From contig JAZSLN010000036.1 in assembly GCA_045535385.1 (NCBI GenBank), positions 1-48,596 on the forward strand: a stretch of 48,596 nucleotides of DNA. Reading direction: 5' to 3'. Every line of letters starts with the position of its first letter. Within the stretch, counting starts at the first letter, position 1. Under the pieces are notes generated by a model, which made no database searches, had not been told where the DNA came from, and worked only from the letters and a program-made list of their open reading frames with translations. The position numbers and the translations under genes are program-made. Of this stretch, positions 15,806 to 39,628 are shown piece after piece. The stretch comes from Eubacteriales bacterium (GTDB taxonomy: Bacteria; Bacillota; Clostridia; Oscillospirales; CAG-382).

Positions 15806-17515
15806 TTACATAGGCGAGCCGTCTTTTGCACGGCGAATCTTGTTTGTCGTCGTTTTAACGAAGGGCTCTTCGCGGATGATAACGTGGGTTATCTGCTTAT
15901 AGGTCGGTAACTGAGCGAGCTTTTCGTAAATATCGCTCTTTAGCTTTGCGGTGAGCTCGTCCTTGTTTCCGCTCGCGAGATAATCGGGGTCGAGCGCACA
16001 TTGAACCGCAAGCGCATCCTCGGTACCGTCTTCGGCGCGTGAGCCGTAGACGATGCATTCGAGAACGTAGGGAATACCGCAAATATAATCCTCAAGCTCC
16101 TCGGGATAGATGTTCTTGCCGTTGCCGAGGATGATAATATTCTTCTTACGGCCGGTAATAACGATCTGACCGATGCTTGTTATCTTGCCGTAGTCGCCGG
16201 TACGGAAATAGCCGTCCTCGGTGAATGCCTCGGCAGTAGCTTCGGGGTTTTTGTAATAACCCAGCATAACGGTGTCGCCCTTGACGCATATCTCACCCTC
16301 TTCGTCTTCGTTCGGGTCGTCGATACGTACGTCAACACAAGCCATAGGGAATCCTACGGTGCGCGGGTCGCTGATAAAGTCGGTGTTGACCGATACGAGG
16401 GGCGAACATTCGGTTATACCGTAGCCGTTGTTTACAAGAATACCGATGTCGTTGAAGAAATCGACGATTTCAGCACGGAGCGGAGCACCGCCGCAGATCA
16501 ACAAGACAAGGTTTCCGCCGAGACCGGCGTGGATTTCGGCGAATATTTTGCGTCTTGCGTCGATGCCGATAGCACGTAGGAAGTTAGAAAGCTTGCGTGC
16601 GGTTTTGATCGTTTTTGTCTTGCCCTTTTCTTCGATGCTCGCGTTAAGACGGCGGTAAAGAACCTCCATAAGCGCGGGAACAACGTACATATATTCGGGC
16701 TGATAAAGCGCGAGGTTTTTAACGATTCTCTTTAAGCTGTCGTTTATAGCAACGGTATTGTGTCTGTGGATAGCCACGAGAATGCCGGCAATAGATTCGT
16801 AAGCGTGATGGTAGGGAAGCACCGATAACGCGGTGTCGCGGAGGCTGGTTAGCTTGAGTCCCCAATGTATAAGCGATTTGATGTTGTGCTCGGAGAGCAT
16901 AACGCCTTTTGCCAGTCCCGTTGTGCCCGAGGTATAGATGAGCATTTTCATAGCCATCATATCCTTGGTTTCCATTTCACAGAACTCGCGGTCGCCGTCT
17001 TCGTAAAGCTTTTTGCCCTTCTTCATAAGAAGCTTGAAGGATAAAAACTCGCCTTCGTCCTCTTCTCTGTCGAAGGAAACGAAATATTTAACGTTGGGGA
17101 GTTGGTCGCGGATGGAACGGAATATCTCCTCGCGCTTCTTGTCGCAGAAGATTATATCGTCGTCGCCGTGGTTGATAACCGTAACGAGGTCATCCGCAGG
17201 AAGCTCTTTGTCGATAGGGCAGAAAACACCTTCGCTCTGGAGCGCAGTAAGGAAAACAGCTATCCAATTATAGCTGTTCTCGGCACAGCAACCGATATGG
17301 CCTCTCGCCATTCCGAGCGAGTTGAGTCCGGTGCCGATGTAGAGAGTATCCATACGGAAATCACGGTAGGTAACCTCGACAGTGCCACCTTTTCCACGGT
17401 ATTTATATGCGATTTTGTCGCCTGCATCGTCGGCAGCCATCAAAAGCATGTGCTTTATATTTTTAGGTTCGGGAAGATTCATTTCCGGTTCTCTTGCGAG
17501 AGCGTTTTTTGCCAT
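15806..17515 (-). CDS. AMP-dependent (long-chain type) acyl-CoA ligase
   Basis: 569 aa. AMP-binding motif LIYTSGTTGLAKGVMLSEHN, FRTGDYG, and a C-terminal TTTNKIRR. The gene has its own promoter and terminator. Confidence 0.85.
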   Translation of the reverse strand: MAKNALAREPEMNLPEPKNIKHMLLMAADDAGDKIAYKYRGKGGTVEVTYRDFRMDTLYIGTGLNSLGMARGHIGCCAENSYNWIAVFLTALQSEGVFCPIDKELPADDLVTVINHGDDDIIFCDKKREEIFRSIRDQLPNVKYFVSFDREEDEGEFLSFKLLMKKGKKLYEDGDREFCEMETKDMMAMKMLIYTSGTTGLAKGVMLSEHNIKSLIHWGLKLTSLRDTALSVLPYHHAYESIAGILVAIHRHNTVAINDSLKRIVKNLALYQPEYMYVVPALMEVLYRRLNASIEEKGKTKTIKTARKLSNFLRAIGIDARRKIFAEIHAGLGGNLVLLICGGAPLRAEIVDFFNDIGILVNNGYGITECSPLVSVNTDFISDPRTVGFPMACVDVRIDDPNEDEEGEICVKGDTVMLGYYKNPEATAEAFTEDGYFRTGDYGKITSIGQIVITGRKKNIIILGNGKNIYPEELEDYICGIPYVLECIVYGSRAEDGTEDALAVQCALDPDYLASGNKDELTAKLKSDIYEKLAQLPTYKQITHVIIREEPFVKTTTNKIRRAKDGSPM

Positions 17516-28555: not shown

Positions 28556-29165
28556 TTTCGGCTACATCCTCAGCAGTCGCATTTACGCTTTCCTCGGCCG
28601 TTTCTTCAACCGTTTCTTCGGTTGCTTCCTCGACAGGTTCTTCGGTTGCGATTTCTTCGGGATTTTCGGGTGCAGACTCGGATTTGATACGCGCTTCGAC
28701 CTTAGCGTCGAGGAAGATCACGTAGACAGCGAGAAGCACCGCGCCGACGGTAACAAAACAATCGGCAACGTTGAAAATCGGGAACTTTATAAAGTCCGTC
28801 TTGAGAAAATCGACAACGTATCCCAAACGGAAACGGTCGATCATATTACCGATCGCTCCTCCGAGAATCATCGACAAAGCGATATTCATGAGCGGATGAC
28901 GCTTGTAAAACTTGATAAGAATATAAACTATCAAAGCCATTGCGGCGAGGGAGATGCCGAGTAAAACGACTCTCTGCCATCCGCCGTCGTTGAGGATCGA
29001 AAAACCGCCGCCTTTGTTTTCGGCATAGGAAAGCGAGAGAACGTGGGGAATGAATCCCTGCGTCCAATCGCTGATTCCGTTAACGGGGTTTGCCGCTTGA
29101 ACGACAAAATATTTCGTGATCTGGTCGGAAACTACCGCCAAAATTACAATAATTATCGCTAACAT
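28548..29165 (-). CDS. lspA: Lipoprotein signal peptidase II (with a ~50-aa acidic C-terminal tail)
   Basis: AENKGGGFS, GGAIGNMIDR and FNVADCFVTVG are LspA motifs. The tail reads PEEIATEEPVEEATEETVEETAEES. Confidence 0.9.
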   Translation of the reverse strand: MLAIIIVILAVVSDQITKYFVVQAANPVNGISDWTQGFIPHVLSLSYAENKGGGFSILNDGGWQRVVLLGISLAAMALIVYILIKFYKRHPLMNIALSMILGGAIGNMIDRFRLGYVVDFLKTDFIKFPIFNVADCFVTVGAVLLAVYVIFLDAKVEARIKSESAPENPEEIATEEPVEEATEETVEETAEESVNATAEDVAENG

Positions 29166-31963
29166 ACTGCTTTACGGCAACGTGCACAGAGATGCTGACC
29201 GTCTTCATCGGCGGTGCAATCGTTCTTGTGCATCCAGCAACGTACGCACTTTTCACCGTCAGCAACCGAAACAGAAACGGAAATTCCGGTTTCTTCGTCG
29301 GTGTAAGCGCTTTCGGGAGCGTTTTCGGACGAAAGGGAAGCCTTGCTTACGATGAATATTTCGGGAAGAATAGATTCAAATTCGGCAAAGAGCTTGAATG
29401 TATCGCTTTCGGACTTAGCGTATATAACAACGCTTGCCTCGAGAGATTTACCGATGATCTTATCCGCACGTGCGATCTCGAGCGCCTTCATAACTCCGTC
29501 GCGGAGGTTGAAGAGTGCTTCGTATTTAGCCTCGATATCCGAGAAGTCGAGCTTTTCGTCAAATTCGGGCATACGGTTAAGGAATACGCTCTCGAGGTCG
29601 TCGCCGTCTGCGTGGCACATAAAGTCCCAGGTTTCCTCAGCGGTATAGGACAAAATGGGCGCGAGAAGACGGGTGAGCGAGTTTACGATGATATACATCG
29701 CGGTCTGCGCGCTTCTGCGAGCCGCGTCGTCCTTAGTTTCACAGTAAAGTCTGTCCTTGGTGATGTCGATATAAAGCTTCGACATATCTATCGAACAGAA
29801 ATTGTGGATATCGTGGTATACGATATGGAATTGATAGGTGTCATAAGCATCACGAACTCGCTTAACGAGCTTGTTGAGACGCGAAAGAGCCCATTTGTCG
29901 ATATCGGTAAGGTTTTCTAGCGCAACCATATCCTTGTTGGGGTCGAAATCGGTCTCGGGTGAGCCGAGGTTAGCGAGAAGGATACGCAACGTATTTCTGA
30001 GCTTGCGGTAGGATTCCGAAAGCTGCTTGAAGATCTCTTTAGAACAACGTACGTCCGCATGATAGTCGGAGGATGCCGCCCAGAGACGAAGGATATCCGC
30101 GCCGAAATCCTTAATAAGATCGGCGGGGTCAACACCGTTGCCGAGACTCTTGTGCATCGCACGTCCCTGACCGTCAACGACCCAGCCGTGAGTCAATACC
30201 TGCTTGAAGGGAGCGCCCTTATCAAGCGCGCCTACCGAGGTAAGAAGGCTCGACTGGAACCAACCGCGGTACTGGTCTGCGCCTTCAAGATATACGTCCG
30301 CAGGCCAAAGATCGGGGGTGTCCTTCATAAGAGAAGCAAAATGGGTGGAGCCGGAGTCGAACCAACAGTCGAGGGTGTCGGTCTCCTTCTCAAAACTCTT
30401 GCCGTTACAGTGCGGGCAGGTGAAGTTTTCGGGAATAAGCTCTTCTGCGCTGAGCTCGAACCAGATATTAGAACCGTGCTCGTTGAAGAGCTCGGAGATT
30501 TTTGCGATAGATTCGGGGGTGGAAATGGGCTTGCCGCAATCCTTACAGTAAAATACGGGAATGGGAAGGCCCCAACGGCGTTGACGGGAAATACACCAAT
30601 CGGCTCTTTCGCGGATCATGCTTATCATTCTGTCTTCGCCCCAAGCGGGATACCATTGAACGTTCTCGATAGCCTTTATTGCCTGATCCTTGAAGGATTC
30701 GACAGAGCAGAACCATTGGGGAGTCGCACGGAAGATGACCGGCTTTTTGCAACGGTCGTGGTGGGGATAGGAGTGCATTATGCTTTCGGATGCGAAAAGT
30801 GCGCCCGATTCTCTCATATCCTCTAAAATAATGGGGTTGGATTCCTCGGTTTTGAGACCTGCATATTTTCCTGCATAATCGGTGTGTCTGCCGTAATCGT
30901 CAACGGGAACGACAAGATCCATACCGTAACGCATACAGGTCTGGTAGTCGTCGGCACCGAAGCCGGGAGCGGTGTGTACGCATCCCGTACCGCTGTCCAT
31001 GGTAACGTATTCGGCGTTAACCAAGCGGGAGGTCTTATCCAGGAAGGGGTGAACGGCTATCATATTCTCGAAGAATTCTCCGGGGAATGTAGCTAAAATC
31101 TCGTAATTTTCAAATCCGCCGAGCTTCATTGTTTTTTCGGCGAGTGCTTCTGCCATAATATAGGTTTCGCCGTTTTCTGCCTTTATGAGAGCATAGCTTT
31201 CGCGGGGATGCAGACAGATCGCCATATTACCGGGAAGAGTCCAGATAGTGGTGGTCCAAATGACGAAATAGGTATTTTCAAGGTAGAATTCGTTGAGCTT
31301 GCCCTGATCGTCCTTCATTTTGAACTTGACGTAAACGGAGGTACAGGGGTCGTCATGATATTCTATATCGGCTTCGGCAACGGCGGTAGCACAGAAGGGA
31401 CACCAGGTTACGGGCTTGAGACCCTTGTAAATGTAGCCCTTATCGAACATGGCGCCGAAGATTTTAACTTCCTGCGCTTCGAAGTGCTTGTCCATAGTAC
31501 GGTAAGGAGCGTCCCAATCACCTACAACGCCGAGACGTCTGAAGCCGGACATCTGCTTCTGGATAAAGTCCTCTGCGAAATCCTCGCACGCCTTTCTGAA
31601 TTCGGGGACGGACATATCCTTATTCAAATCCTTTTTGGATTTTTCAATAGCTCTTTCAATAGGAAGACCGTGGTTATCCCAACCGGGAACGTAAGGGGTG
31701 TAATATCCGCTCATTGCTTTGGATTTTACGATAAAATCCTTCAAAACCTTGTTAAGAGCGTGGCCCATGTGGATGTAACCGTTAGAAAAGGGAGGGCCGT
31801 CGTGCAATACGAAAGCGGGGTTTCCTTCATTCTTTTCCAAAATCTTTTTGTAAAGCTGCTGATCGTTCCAGCGCTCAAGCATTACGGGTTCCTTCGAGGG
31901 AAGGTTTGCTCTCATAGGATAATCCGTAGAGGGCAAATTGAGTGTATCCTTATAATCTTTCAT
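29159..31963 (-). CDS. ileS: Isoleucyl-tRNA synthetase
   Basis: 934 aa. PFSNGYIHMGHAL (HIGH), a KMSKS-like HKSLGN, and C-terminal zinc-finger cysteines (CVRCW...CARC). Confidence 0.95.
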   Translation of the reverse strand: MKDYKDTLNLPSTDYPMRANLPSKEPVMLERWNDQQLYKKILEKNEGNPAFVLHDGPPFSNGYIHMGHALNKVLKDFIVKSKAMSGYYTPYVPGWDNHGLPIERAIEKSKKDLNKDMSVPEFRKACEDFAEDFIQKQMSGFRRLGVVGDWDAPYRTMDKHFEAQEVKIFGAMFDKGYIYKGLKPVTWCPFCATAVAEADIEYHDDPCTSVYVKFKMKDDQGKLNEFYLENTYFVIWTTTIWTLPGNMAICLHPRESYALIKAENGETYIMAEALAEKTMKLGGFENYEILATFPGEFFENMIAVHPFLDKTSRLVNAEYVTMDSGTGCVHTAPGFGADDYQTCMRYGMDLVVPVDDYGRHTDYAGKYAGLKTEESNPIILEDMRESGALFASESIMHSYPHHDRCKKPVIFRATPQWFCSVESFKDQAIKAIENVQWYPAWGEDRMISMIRERADWCISRQRRWGLPIPVFYCKDCGKPISTPESIAKISELFNEHGSNIWFELSAEELIPENFTCPHCNGKSFEKETDTLDCWFDSGSTHFASLMKDTPDLWPADVYLEGADQYRGWFQSSLLTSVGALDKGAPFKQVLTHGWVVDGQGRAMHKSLGNGVDPADLIKDFGADILRLWAASSDYHADVRCSKEIFKQLSESYRKLRNTLRILLANLGSPETDFDPNKDMVALENLTDIDKWALSRLNKLVKRVRDAYDTYQFHIVYHDIHNFCSIDMSKLYIDITKDRLYCETKDDAARRSAQTAMYIIVNSLTRLLAPILSYTAEETWDFMCHADGDDLESVFLNRMPEFDEKLDFSDIEAKYEALFNLRDGVMKALEIARADKIIGKSLEASVVIYAKSESDTFKLFAEFESILPEIFIVSKASLSSENAPESAYTDEETGISVSVSVADGEKCVRCWMHKNDCTADEDGQHLCARCRKAVC

Positions 31964-36814: not shown

Positions 36815-36850
36815 AAAAAACGTTTCCGATATTACTATTATTAAGTCGAC

Positions 36851-36881
36851 ATCAGGCGCAGGAGGTATTCCTGCGCCTGAT
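36851..36881 (-). terminator. 13-bp GC-rich hairpin after the HTH-cupin-ACS gene
   Basis: ATCAGGCGCAGGA-GGTAT-TCCTGCGCCTGAT. No clear U-tract follows on either strand, so its terminator function is uncertain. Confidence 0.45.
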
Positions 36882-36933
36882 ATACTCCCAAAATAATCTT
36901 AACATATTATCGGGTAAAGTCAATGCTTTTTTA

Positions 36934-39240
36934 TTAATTATTTGTTGCGTTCTTGTCGCTTTCGCGGATCTCTTTACGTCTGATCTTGCCCGAGATGGTC
37001 TTGGGGAGACTTTCAACGAATTCGACTCTTCTCGGATATTTGTAGGGTGCGGTATGCGTCTTGACGTAATTCTGGATTTCCTTTACAAGCTCGTCGCTCG
37101 GCTGTTTATCCTTCGTAAGAACGATAGTTGCCTTTACGACCTGACCTCTCGTTTCATCGGGAACACCGGTGATGGCACATTCGAGAACGTAGGGAAGCTC
37201 CATGATAACGCTTTCGATTTCGAACGGGCCGATACGGTAGCCGCTGGATTTGATAACGTCATCAACACGTCCGACATACCAGAAATATCCGTCTTCGTCG
37301 CGCCAAGCGGTGTCGCCGGTGTGGTACATATCGGGCTTGAGTACGTTGTCGGTCGCCTCCTGGTTCTTGTAATAACCGAGGAACAAGCCGAAGGGCTTTT
37401 CTTCGCCTTCCTTGAGACGGATAACGATCTCGCCCTCTTCGCCGACAGCGGCAGGAGTGCCGTCCTCACGCACAAGGTCAACGTTATAAGCGGGGCTGGG
37501 TTTACCCATCGAGCCCGGCTTGGGATCTGCTCCGTAGAGGTTGCCGATAGCAAGAGTGGTTTCGGTTTGACCGAAGGCTTCCATAAGCTTAAGACCGGTG
37601 GCGGTGTAGAAAAGCTTAAATACTTCGGGGTTGAGCGCTTCGCCTGCGATAGTCGCGTGCTTCAAGGAGGAGAGATCGTATTTCGAAAGGTCCTCGCGGA
37701 TGAAGAAGCGATACATTGTAGGAGGTGCGCAGAAGGTGGTGATGTTGTATTTCTTGAACATAGGAAGGAGCTTCGAAGCATCGAAACGGTCGAAGTCGTA
37801 AACGAAGACAGCCGCCTCGCAGAGCCACTGACCGTAAAGCTTACCCCAGAGAGCCTTGCCCCAGCCTGTGTCGGAGATAGTGAAGTGGAGTCCGTCGGGG
37901 TCTACGTAATGCCAATGTCTGGCGGTTACGATATGACCGAGCGGATAGGTGAAGCTGTGCATTGCGAGCTTCGGATAACCGGTCGTGCCCGAAGAGAAGA
38001 ACATAACCGAGGGATCGTCCTTCGAGTTCTGGACACGCTCGAAAACCGAAGAGCAATTGATAAAGTTTGCGTCGAAATCTTCCCAACCGTCCCTTGCTCC
38101 TTTGACCATGATCTTGGTTTTAAGAGTGGGCGCTTTTTCTGCCGCTCTTGCCGCTTCCTCGGCGGTATTTCCGTCGGAGGTGCAGACAATGGCGCTGATT
38201 TCGCCCGCATTGAAGCGGTATTCGAAGTCGTGCTCGACGAGCTGGTTGGTCGCGGGAACGGCAACAGCACCGAGCTTATGAAGCGCGATCATACATACCC
38301 AGAACTGCCAATGGCGCTTGAGCACGAGCATAACTCTGTCGCCCTTTTTGATACCGAGCGACGAGAAATAGTTCGCTGCTTTCGAAGAAAGACGGGAGAT
38401 ATCCGAGAAGGTGAACTCCATTTCGGTTCCGTCGTTGCCGACCCATTGGATGCATTTCTTGTTGGGTACCTTTGCGGCGAGTGCATCGACAACGTCGTAT
38501 GCAAAGTTGAAATTATCGTTGCAATGAAGCTTGATATCGGTCAATCTTCCGCGTTCGTCGAAGGTTTCGTCTACGAACTGCTTGTAGATACAATCGCTGT
38601 AATCGTGCTCGAGAACAAGCGGCTTGACCTGCTCGTGCGCGGTCATATGGTCGTGCATATCCGTGGGGGTGTGGTCTTCCTTGAAAACGACTGCAAGGAA
38701 GGTACAGTCGGAACCGCCGACAGCGATCATACCGTGGGGATGTGCACTGTCGTAATACACCGTGTCGCCGGGGTTCATAACGTAGGTGTGTTTACCTAAC
38801 TGAACCTTGAGCTGACCGGTGAGGACGAGGTCGAATTCCTGACCCGCGTGAGACGCTACGGGGATAGGTTTGTTTTGCGCTTCTTCTTCGTATTTTGCGG
38901 TAACGATAAAGGGCTCGCTCATACGGTTTTTGAGAAGAGGAGCGACGTGTCGGTAATCAAAGCCCTTTTCGCGCTTTATTGTAATACCGCCGCCGGCGCG
39001 GGTGAGGTTATAAAAGTCGAGCTTGGGGTCGCTGCCCGAAACAAGCTCGGAAATATCCATACCGAGAAGCTTTGCACATTTGAAAAGGAACGTGAAGGAG
39101 AAATCCTCCTCGCCCTGTTCAAGGCGTAAATATTCTGCCTCGCCGATTCCACAGGCATCCGCCATATCGGAAACGGGAATATCGAGGTTTTCTCTCGCCC
39201 ATTTAAGTCTTCCTGCGATAAGTTTTGTTTGCTGGTCCAT
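36934..39240 (-). CDS. Fusion protein: XRE-type HTH + cupin + medium-chain acyl-CoA synthetase (ANL superfamily)
   Basis: 768 aa. HTH segment LKWARENLDIPVSDMADACGIGEAEYLRLEQGE. Cupin segment GQEFDLVLTGQLKV...GDTVYYDSAHPHG. AMP-binding motifs FFSSGTTGYPK, YHTGDTAWRDEDGYFWYVGRVDD and SGKIRRKE. Confidence 0.85.
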   Translation of the reverse strand: MDQQTKLIAGRLKWARENLDIPVSDMADACGIGEAEYLRLEQGEEDFSFTFLFKCAKLLGMDISELVSGSDPKLDFYNLTRAGGGITIKREKGFDYRHVAPLLKNRMSEPFIVTAKYEEEAQNKPIPVASHAGQEFDLVLTGQLKVQLGKHTYVMNPGDTVYYDSAHPHGMIAVGGSDCTFLAVVFKEDHTPTDMHDHMTAHEQVKPLVLEHDYSDCIYKQFVDETFDERGRLTDIKLHCNDNFNFAYDVVDALAAKVPNKKCIQWVGNDGTEMEFTFSDISRLSSKAANYFSSLGIKKGDRVMLVLKRHWQFWVCMIALHKLGAVAVPATNQLVEHDFEYRFNAGEISAIVCTSDGNTAEEAARAAEKAPTLKTKIMVKGARDGWEDFDANFINCSSVFERVQNSKDDPSVMFFSSGTTGYPKLAMHSFTYPLGHIVTARHWHYVDPDGLHFTISDTGWGKALWGKLYGQWLCEAAVFVYDFDRFDASKLLPMFKKYNITTFCAPPTMYRFFIREDLSKYDLSSLKHATIAGEALNPEVFKLFYTATGLKLMEAFGQTETTLAIGNLYGADPKPGSMGKPSPAYNVDLVREDGTPAAVGEEGEIVIRLKEGEEKPFGLFLGYYKNQEATDNVLKPDMYHTGDTAWRDEDGYFWYVGRVDDVIKSSGYRIGPFEIESVIMELPYVLECAITGVPDETRGQVVKATIVLTKDKQPSDELVKEIQNYVKTHTAPYKYPRRVEFVESLPKTISGKIRRKEIRESDKNATNN

Positions 39241-39332
39241 GATGAAAAATCCTTTCTGTAATAGAAAAATTTTCCGATAAAAACATATTTTTTGTTTTTT
39301 CTCGGGCGCAGATGCTTCTGCTTTTCGCCGAT

Positions 39333-39593
39333 AAAAACAAAAATAGCTTCATCTGCAACGAGATGAAACTATTACAAATAGTTACACTATACCACTCATT
39401 TGCCGCGCATATACGCATTTCCCTTTATTACGGCGGAAGCTCCGGCGCGCCCTACTGGTGATTCGGGCGAGCAGCTCGAAGGTGATAAGTCGGTAAGGCG
39501 GCTGTTGCCTCGCACCAAACGGCAACTCTCTGAAAGCTTAACACATATCGACCCGTGTCCTTGTCTGTGCTTTTATCGGTTATGTTTTTGATG
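39333..39593 (-). promoter_or_regulatory. T-box riboswitch leader, specifier AUC (isoleucine), including the terminator at 39371-39333
   Basis: All elements are on the minus strand. K-turn: GC-ACA-GA-CAAGG against CCUUC-GA-GC. Specifier AUC followed by A at 39486-39483. AGAGA bulge. Distal loop GUUUGGUGCGA. Antiterminator bulge UGGUAUA (39394-39388). A competing 11-bp terminator plus U-tract. Confidence 0.72.
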
Positions 39594-39599
39594 ACACAC

Positions 39600-39628
39600 A
39601 TATTATCACTATTGATACGGTTTGTCAA
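39600..39628 (-). promoter_or_regulatory. Promoter of the T-box leader: TTGACA-17-TAATAT with a TGn extension
   Basis: The minus strand reads TTGACAaaccgtatcaatagTGaTAATAT, with the spacer counted as 17 nt. The predicted TSS is about 20 nt before the K-turn. Confidence 0.55.

Follow-up and report, generated by a model that had tools for sequence, protein, structure and literature searches.

Why would a clostridial acyl-coenzyme A (CoA) synthetase be joined to a helix-turn-helix (HTH) and a cupin domain and placed behind a leader RNA that reads isoleucine tRNA, and which acid would it activate? The question is raised by contig JAZSLN010000036.1 of an Eubacteriales bacterium (GenBank assembly GCA_045535385.1; GTDB lineage Oscillospirales, CAG-382), whose whole stretch of 48,596 nucleotides is called the window here. 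A first-pass annotation of the window had proposed that isoleucine starvation induces the enzyme, that it activates 2-methylbutyrate, and that the product is reductively carboxylated on the way to isoleucine. The evidence gathered here is comparative throughout, and it strongly supports that proposal. The specifier codon is AUC (Ile) in 52 related leaders, the closest characterised enzyme is the 2-methylbutyrate-preferring MacsMa of Methanosarcina acetivorans, operons of relatives contain VorB and IlvE, and a sister clade with valine leaders mirrors the isobutyrate–valine branch of the same route. We therefore read the gene as a probable AMP-forming, MacsMa-type 2-methylbutyrate:CoA ligase whose transcription would be gated by an isoleucine-specific T-box, and we give this reading a probability of about 0.7.

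The fused gene and its domains

The gene lies on the minus strand of the window. Its parts, with the Pfam matches that define them, are as follows.

36934–39240, minus strand: open reading frame (ORF) of 768 residues, uninterrupted, stop codon within the coordinates; HTH-like domain, cupin and acyl-CoA synthetase of the MACS type (synthetase for medium-chain acyl-CoA)
39250–39256, minus strand: ribosome-binding site GAAAGGA, 9 nt 5′ of the ATG, read off the sequence
39037–39240, minus strand: residues 1–68, XRE/HTH_3-like five-helix α domain, net charge −6 (Pfam, AlphaFold2, charge analysis)
38680–38928, minus strand: residues 105–187, cupin β-barrel with a possible 2-His-1-Glu metal site H131/E135/H169 (Pfam, invariant columns, Foldseek)
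38596–38679, minus strand: residues 188–215, disordered linker (AlphaFold2 pLDDT <50), the dividing point of split, two-gene versions
36946–38595, minus strand: residues 216–765, MacsMa-like ANL adenylating enzyme (3ETC, 656 bits, 55% identity; best NCBIfam match MbcS)
37846–37863, minus strand: residues 460–465, WGKALW, putative acyl-pocket helix (class-discriminating analysis)
Residues 12–66: HTH_3, Pfam PF01381, 28.5 bits against a cut-off of 23
Residues 126–185: Cupin_2, Pfam PF07883, 43.7 bits
Residues 255–623: AMP-binding, Pfam PF00501, 199.4 bits
Residues 674–752: AMP-binding_C, Pfam PF13193, 79.9 bits

Pfam finds all four domains in one polypeptide, in agreement with the three-part organization (HTH, cupin, ANL enzyme) that the first-pass annotation had read from a single ORF. 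The motifs on which that reading relied are all in place, at residues 158–170 (GDTVYYDSAHPHG), 414–424 (FFSSGTTGYPK), 639–643 (YHTGD) and 750–757 (SGKIRRKE). The ORF had also been described as the only one between its leader and a downstream hairpin, and the interval indeed holds no further ORF on the same strand. The ANL core motifs FFSSGTTGYPK, YHTGD, GRVDDVIKSSGYRIG and PKTISGKIRRKE are invariant in the family. With AMP-binding N- and C-domains and core motifs A3, A7, A8 and A10 all found, the predicted protein belongs to the ANL superfamily.

An isoleucine T-box leader upstream of the gene

The region 5′ of the gene contains a promoter, a T-box leader and an intrinsic terminator, and a hairpin lies 3′ of it.

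39600–39628, minus strand: σ70-type promoter; −35 box TTGACA (39628–39623), 17-nt spacer, TG-extended −10 box TAATAT (39605–39600)
39356–39576, minus strand: T-box leader with Stem I, Stem III and antiterminator (Rfam RF00230, model positions 1–219)
39484–39486, minus strand: specifier codon AUC (Ile) with A as the next base; placed by the Rfam alignment
39385–39397, minus strand: T-box sequence GAGUGGUAUAGUG, read off the sequence
39329–39373, minus strand: intrinsic terminator, a 13-bp stem (39373–39342) plus U-tract (terminator scan, folding, relatives)
36849–36883, minus strand: stable hairpin 3′ of the ORF, −32.6 kcal/mol, z = −7.6 (sequence and folding)

The promoter matches the consensus at 10 of 12 positions and has the TG extension in addition, and the pattern TTGACAA...TGnTAtAAT is conserved at the same position in 76 related leaders. 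In E-value mode the leader gives a full-length match to RF00230 (69.6 bits; E 9e-15 locally and 4e-13 for the whole window). The alignment to the full-length model shows the distal Stem I motifs AGAGAG and UUUGGUGCGAG. We used this Rfam alignment for Stem I because minimum-free-energy folding of the single sequence did not reproduce the covariance-model structure. The antiterminator folds into helix A1, a 7-nt bulge UGGUAUA and helix A2, and the UGGU of the bulge would pair with the 3′ end of a tRNA whose discriminator base is A. The 5′ arm of the terminator, whose stem is followed by the U-tract UUUGUUUUU, overlaps the 3′ arm of the antiterminator, so that the two structures are mutually exclusive. 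Close relatives share the same diverged leader variant and the AUC specifier, with compensatory changes in the terminator stem. All the anatomical hallmarks of a T-box are therefore present (Stem I motifs, specifier loop, a UGGN bulge in the antiterminator and a competing terminator), and the isoleucine T-box that had been proposed upstream of the gene is confirmed by its AUC specifier and its full-length model match.

The second structure named by the first-pass annotation, a strong hairpin at 36851–36881, exists as a stable hairpin at 36849–36883; it has no U-tract on either strand and is not a canonical intrinsic terminator. It sits between a promoter-like site (TTGACT...TAAGAT, 36923–36896) and miaA.

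A search of the window for a second T-box as an internal control, for example before a class-I aminoacyl-tRNA synthetase, found none. This 934-residue synthetase (29159–31963, minus strand) has no T-box and starts 26 nt after the preceding ORF. By its size and its position after divIVA it is probably IleRS.

The enzyme resembles a 2-methylbutyrate-preferring synthetase

The closest solved structure is that of MacsMa from M. acetivorans (3ETC; 656 bits, 55% identity over 535 residues), and we class the protein, as a prediction from sequence, with the MacsMa-type MACS family. The first-pass annotation had stated that the M. acetivorans enzyme prefers 2-methylbutyrate, and this is correct: 2-methylbutyrate is its preferred substrate (PMC10455477). 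MacsMa adenylates a broad C3–C8 range of acids; with 2-methylbutyrate it completes the two-step reaction to the acyl-CoA, while many other adenylates are unsuited to the thioester-forming step (PMC10455477).

Six residues of the enzyme domain, W443, W460, K462, W465, C504 and G557, are invariant in the family. In the alignment to MacsMa, G557 corresponds to G351 and W465 to W259, and the helix W460-G461-K462-A463-L464-W465 aligns with MacsMa W254-G255-K256...W259, so that MacsMa itself has the motif GWGK. The pocket tryptophan of acetyl-CoA synthetase (Acs; AcsMt W416) is replaced by Gly557, as in medium-chain enzymes. The role of MacsMa Trp259 in substrate binding and that of a glycine at the Acs pocket-tryptophan position are both documented (PMC10455477).

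Two other identities were considered and ruled out. The protein is not an MbcS equivalog (456.7 bits against 850) and is related to MbcS only. It is not Acs either, as judged from scores below the model cut-offs together with Gly557 in place of the pocket tryptophan; the acetate–CoA ligase models reach 356.7, 253.4 and 252.7 bits against cut-offs of 729, 657 and 725.

Leader specificity tracks the putative acyl pocket

At least 596 relatives were found when one genome per species was scanned, and the best 80 loci were analysed. A T-box core lies 100–300 nt before the start codon in 64 of the 73 loci with at least 300 nt of upstream sequence. The co-occurrence of fusion and T-box, which the first-pass annotation had marked for a survey, is thus widespread. 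Four loci in which a regular expression did not match the T-box core have no T-box at all. Specifiers were taken by alignment-based extraction, as extraction by regular expression gave false positives at short distances. This left 79 genes with a readable leader, of which 52 have AUC in the specifier column and 27 have GUA or GUC. Specifier and pocket motif combine as follows.

AUC with GWGK: 52 genes of 79
GUA with GWAK: 23 genes of 79
GUC with GWAK: 3 genes of 79
GUA with GWGK: 1 gene of 79
AUC with GWAK: 0 genes of 79

Specifier class and pocket motif therefore agree in 78 of the 79 genes. When the 52 Ile-class proteins were compared with the 27 Val-class proteins, only 6 of about 530 enzyme-domain positions separated the classes. 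Three of these are bulkier in the Val class, namely 461 (G to A), 464 (L to M) and 564 (T/S/A to I/V/M). Two of the three fall within the WGKALW helix, where the Ile class has G461 and L464 and the Val class has A and M. This near-perfect correlation between leader and pocket predicts which paralog takes which acid.

The genes with a valine leader form one clade in the protein tree. In this clade the discriminating positions are concentrated in the N-terminal module (31 of 42), with one strict discriminator in the enzyme domain; in control clades they are spread over both halves of the protein. A91, H92, L111 and Y182 are invariant in 27 of 27 Val-class proteins. The pattern of N-terminal divergence appears to indicate a class-specific function, for example recognition of an Ile-related as against a Val-related ligand.

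About 20 loci carry two copies in tandem. An AUC leader always precedes the upstream copy; before the downstream copy there is usually a separate promoter with a GUA or GUC leader. The sole discordant gene (L055:7962-10250; loci are cited by number), with a GUA leader and the Ile-type GWGK motif, branches basally in the Val clade and is perhaps an intermediate in evolution. At another locus (L012:10502-12100) a Val-type T-box is followed by three short ORFs of 237, 150 and 113 residues in place of the second MACS copy. The arrangement resembles a Val paralog that has been pseudogenised or frameshifted; an intact P-loop/VOR cluster follows it.

Operons of relatives encode candidates for the next two steps

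Operon content was counted in the 52 of the best 80 loci that have at least 6 kb of downstream sequence, after clustering of ORFs with an 80-residue filter.

Any Vor subunit: 22 of 52 loci
P-loop protein: 20 of 52 loci
IlvE: 16 of 52 loci
None of these partners: 29 of 52 loci
Two-copy loci with Vor: 13 of 13

The partner genes lie on the same strand with short gaps. The recurrent order is T-box(Ile)–MACS(I), T-box(Val)–MACS(V), a CbiA/ParA-like P-loop gene, the α subunit of VOR, a 2-oxoacid:ferredoxin oxidoreductase (VorB), a thiamine-pyrophosphate-binding β subunit, a γ subunit and a class-IV aminotransferase. VorB scores above its NCBIfam cut-off (550.5 against 399 bits), as does the aminotransferase with two IlvE equivalog models (486 against 307 and 401 against 250 bits). 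The β and γ subunits and the P-loop protein are assigned at the Pfam level. Between the P-loop gene and VorB there is a gap of about 210–270 nt. In locus L088 a gene for a 68-residue ferredoxin (δ subunit) lies between the P-loop gene and the α subunit; in the other loci the 80-residue filter would skip δ-type genes of this size. The first-pass annotation had looked to a VOR-type enzyme for the carboxylation step, and VorB-type subunits do occur in 22 of the 52 relatives' loci, with none inside the window.

The P-loop protein is a CbiA/ParA-like NTPase of about 220 residues with no NCBIfam assignment (L031:12897-13571, L035:2715-3380 and L088:1905-2606, the last on the minus strand). It lies consistently between the MACS gene or genes and the VOR δ/α genes, and in one locus it adjoins a divergently transcribed VOR. 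A role in VOR maturation or as an Fe–S factor is conceivable.

Proposed pathway and points that weigh against it

Together these features suggest a route from acid to amino acid. Uncharged tRNA-Ile would pair with the AUC specifier and the UGGU bulge, stabilise the antiterminator and allow read-through of the terminator (39373–39329), as the leader's anatomy and the known biology of T-boxes would lead one to expect. The ligase, to judge by its homology, its pocket residues and its gene context, would then convert exogenous 2-methylbutyrate to 2-methylbutyryl-CoA. A VorB-type 2-oxoacid:ferredoxin oxidoreductase, working in the reductive direction with reduced ferredoxin and CO2, would carboxylate the acyl-CoA to 2-oxo-3-methylvalerate, which IlvE would transaminate to isoleucine; both steps are proposed from the relatives' operons and the classical rumen pathway. 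The sister subfamily, with its valine T-box and bulkier pocket, would take isobutyrate to valine by the same route. Where an operon has two copies, the shared VOR and IlvE would be expressed by read-through from either leader, an OR logic that answers to demand for isoleucine or valine. The anabolic direction is favoured because the gene would be induced by amino-acid starvation and because the ligase is of the AMP-forming type, and the sequence acid, acyl-CoA, 2-oxoacid, amino acid is supported because operons combine VorB-type subunits with an aminotransferase. Both conversions are described in rumen bacteria, that of 2-methylbutyrate giving isoleucine and that of isobutyrate giving valine (PMC7356843, citing Robinson and Allison 1969 and Allison and Peel 1971); phenylacetate to phenylalanine is a further known rumen route (PMC7356843).

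Several observations weigh against assigning this role to the window gene. The leader scores below the RF00230 gathering score (69.6 against 93 bits), and at that score Rfam matches no RNA family anywhere in the window. A search of the 48.6-kb window for homologs of Vor, IlvE and the P-loop protein found none; in 29 of 52 loci the gene is monocistronic, as it is in the window, and the pathway link for this genome is made by extension from relatives. Some lineages carry the fusion without a T-box, namely Victivallaceae/Lentisphaerae metagenome-assembled genomes (MAGs) and one Ruminococcus clade (L007 and L063; also L014, L033, L040, L056 and L065). In a neighbour-joining tree the window protein has the Lentisphaerae proteins as its closest neighbours, a placement that could reflect horizontal transfer or a binning error. 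On the side of the enzyme, the substrate assignment rests on 55% identity to one archaeal protein plus context, and the best NCBIfam model, MbcS NF047394, is matched below its equivalog cut-off. The invariant residues W443, W460, K462, W465, C504 and G557 are putative equivalents of the MacsMa pocket residues. Finally, the Val class is monophyletic, and its class-specific residues are confounded with phylogeny.

Alternative roles of the enzyme

Two other roles can be set against the salvage of 2-methylbutyrate for isoleucine. The ligase might supply branched-chain acyl-CoA primers for anteiso and iso fatty-acid synthesis, in which case induction under Ile or Val limitation would offset the loss of primers derived from these amino acids. 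Rumen bacteria also put branched-chain acids into lipids, and both the window and 29 of the 52 loci have a monocistronic gene that lacks VOR and IlvE as neighbours. The NCBIfam model that scores best is also that of MbcS, which in Staphylococcus aureus feeds FabH with 2-methylbutyryl-CoA and isobutyryl-CoA (PMC10026030). A T-box, however, senses tRNA charging and hence the demand for an amino acid in translation, and the VorB-type subunits (22 of 52 loci) and IlvE (16) found in the same operons would catalyse the two steps from acyl-CoA to amino acid. Separate Ile- and Val-gated paralogs are moreover what an amino-acid-specific supply predicts. We consider primer supply improbable as the physiological role, although it is compatible with amino acid supply and the two are not mutually exclusive. 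That the protein is a generic short- or medium-chain acyl-CoA or acetyl-CoA synthetase, with an isoleucine T-box that says nothing of its substrate, seems still harder to credit. A Joint Genome Institute (JGI) record does call a relative in the 90% cluster an 'acetyl-CoA synthetase', an acetate–CoA ligase model is the second-best NCBIfam match, and MacsMa itself adenylates acids from C3 to C8 (PMC10455477). Against this, the acetate–CoA ligase models fall far short of their cut-offs and G557 stands in for the Acs tryptophan, MacsMa carries 2-methylbutyrate through both steps when many other adenylates are unsuited (PMC10455477), and specifier class follows the pocket residues in 78 of 79 genes.

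The HTH–cupin module accompanies the enzyme, fused or split

The fusion itself recurs widely. More than 100 full-length homologs share its architecture (750–770 residues, 59–89% identity), all 80 of the best reference-genome loci are fused, and so are the 27 sequences of the window protein's own 90% cluster. The best 80 loci are from MAGs (rumen, cecum and fecal) assigned to Oscillospiraceae, Acutalibacteraceae, Christensenellaceae and Ruminococcus, together with two Lentisphaerae/Victivallaceae MAGs. In public records the family proteins go by no names other than 'AMP-binding protein' and 'acetyl-CoA synthetase'.

Hundreds of stand-alone proteins, each about 190 residues long, are homologous to the N-terminal 205 residues (47–60% identity). 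In all six cases examined, the stand-alone HTH–cupin gene is directly upstream of a MACS ortholog of 550–605 residues, with spacing from a 20-nt overlap to a 50-nt gap. The split-gene orthologs align to window residues 1–190 and 216–764, and the split point coincides with the disordered linker (about residues 187–215) of the AlphaFold2 model. Carriers of the split pair include the cultured species [Clostridium] cellulosi, Ligaoa zhengdingensis and Acetanaerobacterium elongatum, whose enzymes are 58–62% identical to window residues 216–764. The T-boxes ahead of these three pairs score 109.9, 96.8 and 95.4 bits, respectively, above the gathering score, and all have the specifier AUC. The HTH–cupin module is hence an obligate partner of the enzyme, present either as a fused domain or as a translationally coupled upstream gene.

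Related species with split, two-gene versions leave room in principle for a false fusion through a lost stop codon, with two genes joined by a frameshift or by an error in sequencing or assembly. The chance of this is negligible in our view, because more than 100 independent homologs from many samples and sources and all 80 reference loci are fused, and because cultured relatives have the same pair as adjacent genes behind the same T-box. In addition, the linker of about 28 residues is in frame and conserved in length, with no shift of frame.

[Clostridium] cellulosi has a further T-box (L081:13345-13587, minus strand; 129 bits) with the specifier GUC (Val) before a class-IV, IlvE-like aminotransferase, about 4 kb from its Ile-T-box/HTH–cupin/MACS pair.

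The module resembles the two-domain architecture of HppE and HEPD

What does the module do? The first-pass annotation took it for a ligand-dependent autoregulator and the whole protein for a regulator–enzyme fusion. The HTH domain is acidic, with a median net charge of −6 to −7 (range −11 to −2) over 115 fused and stand-alone members, and its 'recognition helix' carries the conserved residues E35-E36-Y37...E41-x-G43. Classical DNA-binding XRE domains presumably carry +2 to +9. An operator search in 76 promoters anchored on the −35 box, together with a census of inverted repeats, found no operator at a fixed position, only UP-like A/T tracts and palindromes. Immediately upstream of the −35 box there are recurrent A/T-rich palindromes, AAAAAATATTTTTT among them.

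AlphaFold2 predicts a five-helix HTH domain (pLDDT 82–97) within a model of residues 1–205 (pLDDT 87). A sequence search of the PDB with the N-terminal 210 residues returned no matches, and only the fold search was informative. The best Foldseek matches of residues 1–205 in the PDB are HppE, Psf4, HEPD and MPnS (E 2e-14 to 1e-9); the structural-genomics entry 1Y9Q, an 'HTH_3 regulator', and the Mn-cupin TM1459 are matched as well. In HppE/HEPD-type enzymes the HTH-like α domain is structural and is not known to bind DNA, and the cupin holds a 2-His-1-Glu metal site. The cupin of our family has the invariant motifs H131-x3-E135-x6-G142 and G158-x10-H169. The first histidine of motif 1 is replaced by serine, which leaves three of the four canonical cupin metal ligands. 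The match to HppE, Psf4, HEPD and MPnS has a Foldseek probability of 1.0, the two-domain architecture is the same, and H131, E135 and H169 fall at canonical cupin metal-ligand positions. The differences are an identity of 20–22%, TM-scores of about 0.5 that reflect a different orientation of the domains, and the O2- or peroxide-dependent phosphonate chemistry of those enzymes, which is unlikely in strict anaerobes.

These data bear on whether the protein is a 'trigger enzyme', in which a true XRE-family domain binds DNA and the cupin senses a ligand, for example an acid, acyl-adenylate or amino acid. Repression or activation of its own promoter or of other genes by the HTH would then add a second, supply-sensing layer to the T-box. 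Such a role would fit the HTH_3 match above the Pfam cut-off, the five-helix XRE-like fold, the invariance of R11 and R16 in helix 1, the annotation of 1Y9Q as an HTH_3 regulator and the recurrent A/T-rich palindromes by the −35 box, and lineages without a T-box still keep the module. It is at odds with the strongly acidic HTH and the E-E-Y of its recognition helix, and nothing position-specific is found in the promoters beyond the −35 and −10 boxes and the UP-like tracts. Fused, coupled or overlapping, the module is in every case produced 1:1 with the enzyme, which is atypical for a repressor; the top structural matches (HppE, Psf4, HEPD and MPnS) are enzymes of the same two-domain architecture, and many family members fall below Pfam detection of the HTH. 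We therefore find the autoregulator of the first-pass annotation unsupported, given the acidic HTH, the lack of a conserved operator, the 1:1 synthesis and the HppE/HEPD-type matches. A DNA-binding regulator of any such kind is unlikely, and we lean, by a modest preference, towards a ligand- or metal-binding module that confers specificity or feedback on the enzyme. A further candidate, a cupin epimerase for chiral 2-methylbutyrate, was rejected: the Val/isobutyrate class keeps the module, yet isobutyrate is achiral.

Relation to known systems

Each component is of a known class (MacsMa-type ligase, T-box, VOR, IlvE, XRE–cupin), and the pathway has been known biochemically since the 1960s. The window protein shares the ANL core motifs, the W/W/K/W/C/G pocket and the GWGK motif with MacsMa. 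MacsMa is archaeal and has neither the HTH–cupin module nor a T-box, whereas here we find a large bacterial family with Ile and Val subfamilies. MbcS of S. aureus, the best curated model, activates 2-methylbutyrate and isobutyrate and not acetate (PMC10026030). It feeds fatty-acid synthesis, and a single MbcS takes both acids where we propose two specialised paralogs; in the literature consulted we found no record of a T-box, an HTH–cupin module or a VOR/IlvE operon for it.

In Firmicutes the T-box-controlled genes for branched-chain amino acids (ilv/leu, ileS, valS and transporters) follow the same logic, in that uncharged cognate tRNA leads to antitermination and to more of the amino acid. 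The pathway there runs through acetolactate, whereas here it would be salvage of fermentation acids by reductive carboxylation. Changes of specifier between paralogs, from AUC to GUC or GUA, are a documented way in which T-boxes evolve (PMC3766115). The classical rumen pathway of Allison and co-workers gives the predicted reaction sequence in the same setting of rumen and gut anaerobes. That work is physiological and biochemical, with no genes assigned, and its organisms are Bacteroides/Prevotella, Megasphaera and Ruminococcus, which differ from most carriers here. Trigger enzymes such as BirA, PutA and NadR, and XRE–cupin regulators such as PuuR, also join an HTH to a ligand-binding or enzymatic domain, and BirA joins it to an adenylate-forming ligase. 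DNA binding defines those proteins and is disfavoured here by the electrostatics and by the operator search, which found none.

In full-text searches, which left the subscription literature mostly uncovered, we found no description of an Ile/Val paralog pair with matching specifiers and pocket residues, of an obligate HTH–cupin partner, or of an acyl-CoA synthetase or a VOR/IlvE salvage operon under the control of a T-box; the T-box regulon surveys consulted do not describe any of these either. Many fibre-degrading rumen and gut anaerobes need or profit from branched-chain volatile fatty acids, which dairy cattle receive as supplements. The literature found does not pin down the Firmicutes genes for activation of these acids or their regulation. 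The present analysis offers a testable set of genes, consisting of the T-box, the HTH–cupin/MACS pair, the P-loop protein, VorDBAC and IlvE, in a system that three cultured species carry. It would improve the annotation of hundreds of genomes in which the protein now appears as 'acetyl-CoA synthetase' or 'AMP-binding protein', sharpen metabolic models of how gut communities cross-feed on amino acids, and widen the T-box regulon to salvage from fermentation acids. A large family annotated as 'XRE-family regulators' may not consist of DNA-binding regulators, and a specificity or feedback subunit, if that is what the module is, would be a new role for the XRE–cupin architecture.

Leucine and phenylalanine leaders in the same loci

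T-boxes of other specificity precede different CoA-ligase clusters in some of the same loci. Leu-type (CUC) T-boxes lie before a three-gene cluster at L016:14859, L022:2778, L030:2699, L044:2786, L049:3617, L057:2765, L062:4652 (minus strand), L069:6205 (minus strand) and L077:15020, often just upstream of the Ile/Val operon. The first gene of the cluster encodes a LeuA-like protein (HMGL-like and LeuA_dimer, about 470 residues) that scores below the 2-isopropylmalate synthase cut-offs, the second a fusion of about 830 residues between a xylose-isomerase-like TIM barrel and a fatty-acid–CoA ligase, and the third an Amidohydro_2 protein. The cluster could represent a third branch, related to leucine, in which the ligase is again part of an unusual fusion.

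Phe-type (UUC) T-boxes precede a PaaK-like aryl-CoA ligase (AMP-binding and AMP-binding_C_2, 435 residues) and an ACT-pair protein (L043:12840-14283, L049:13785-15672), and one such leader precedes a sodium:solute symporter (L029:12004, minus strand). By analogy, these clusters suggest a module for salvage of phenylacetate to phenylalanine with a small ligand-binding partner. A PaaK-type phenylacetate–CoA ligase with its ACT partner has the same design, of T-box, acid–CoA ligase and small ligand-binding partner, in some of the same loci. It differs in ligase subfamily and partner domain, and the cluster is absent from the window.

The Leu and Phe T-box-gated CoA-ligase clusters suggest a general design principle. 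As a tentative synthesis, held with less confidence than the assignment of the window gene, we envisage a modular clostridial system for salvage of acids to amino acids. It would combine GWGK 2-methylbutyrate and GWAK isobutyrate ligases behind cognate Ile and Val T-boxes with shared VorB and IlvE and with an HppE-like HTH–cupin partner that binds a metal or ligand and not DNA, and it would have parallels behind Leu (CUC) and Phe (UUC) leaders.

Neighbouring genes and further observations

The genes around the fusion in the window are housekeeping genes (an MBL hydrolase, miaA, an HlyD-like gene, yggS, sepF, divIVA, the class-I aminoacyl-tRNA synthetase, mnmA and others), and their synteny is kept in relatives at 81–84% identity. 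The window encodes a second, unrelated AMP-binding enzyme (15806–17515, minus strand, 569 residues), in which no AMP-binding_C domain was detected at the threshold used and which is weakly similar to the TIM-barrel–ligase family of the related loci. Unrelated to the ligase, A. elongatum has a NiCo riboswitch (L085:11206-11302, 76.8 bits) upstream of a P-type cation ATPase.

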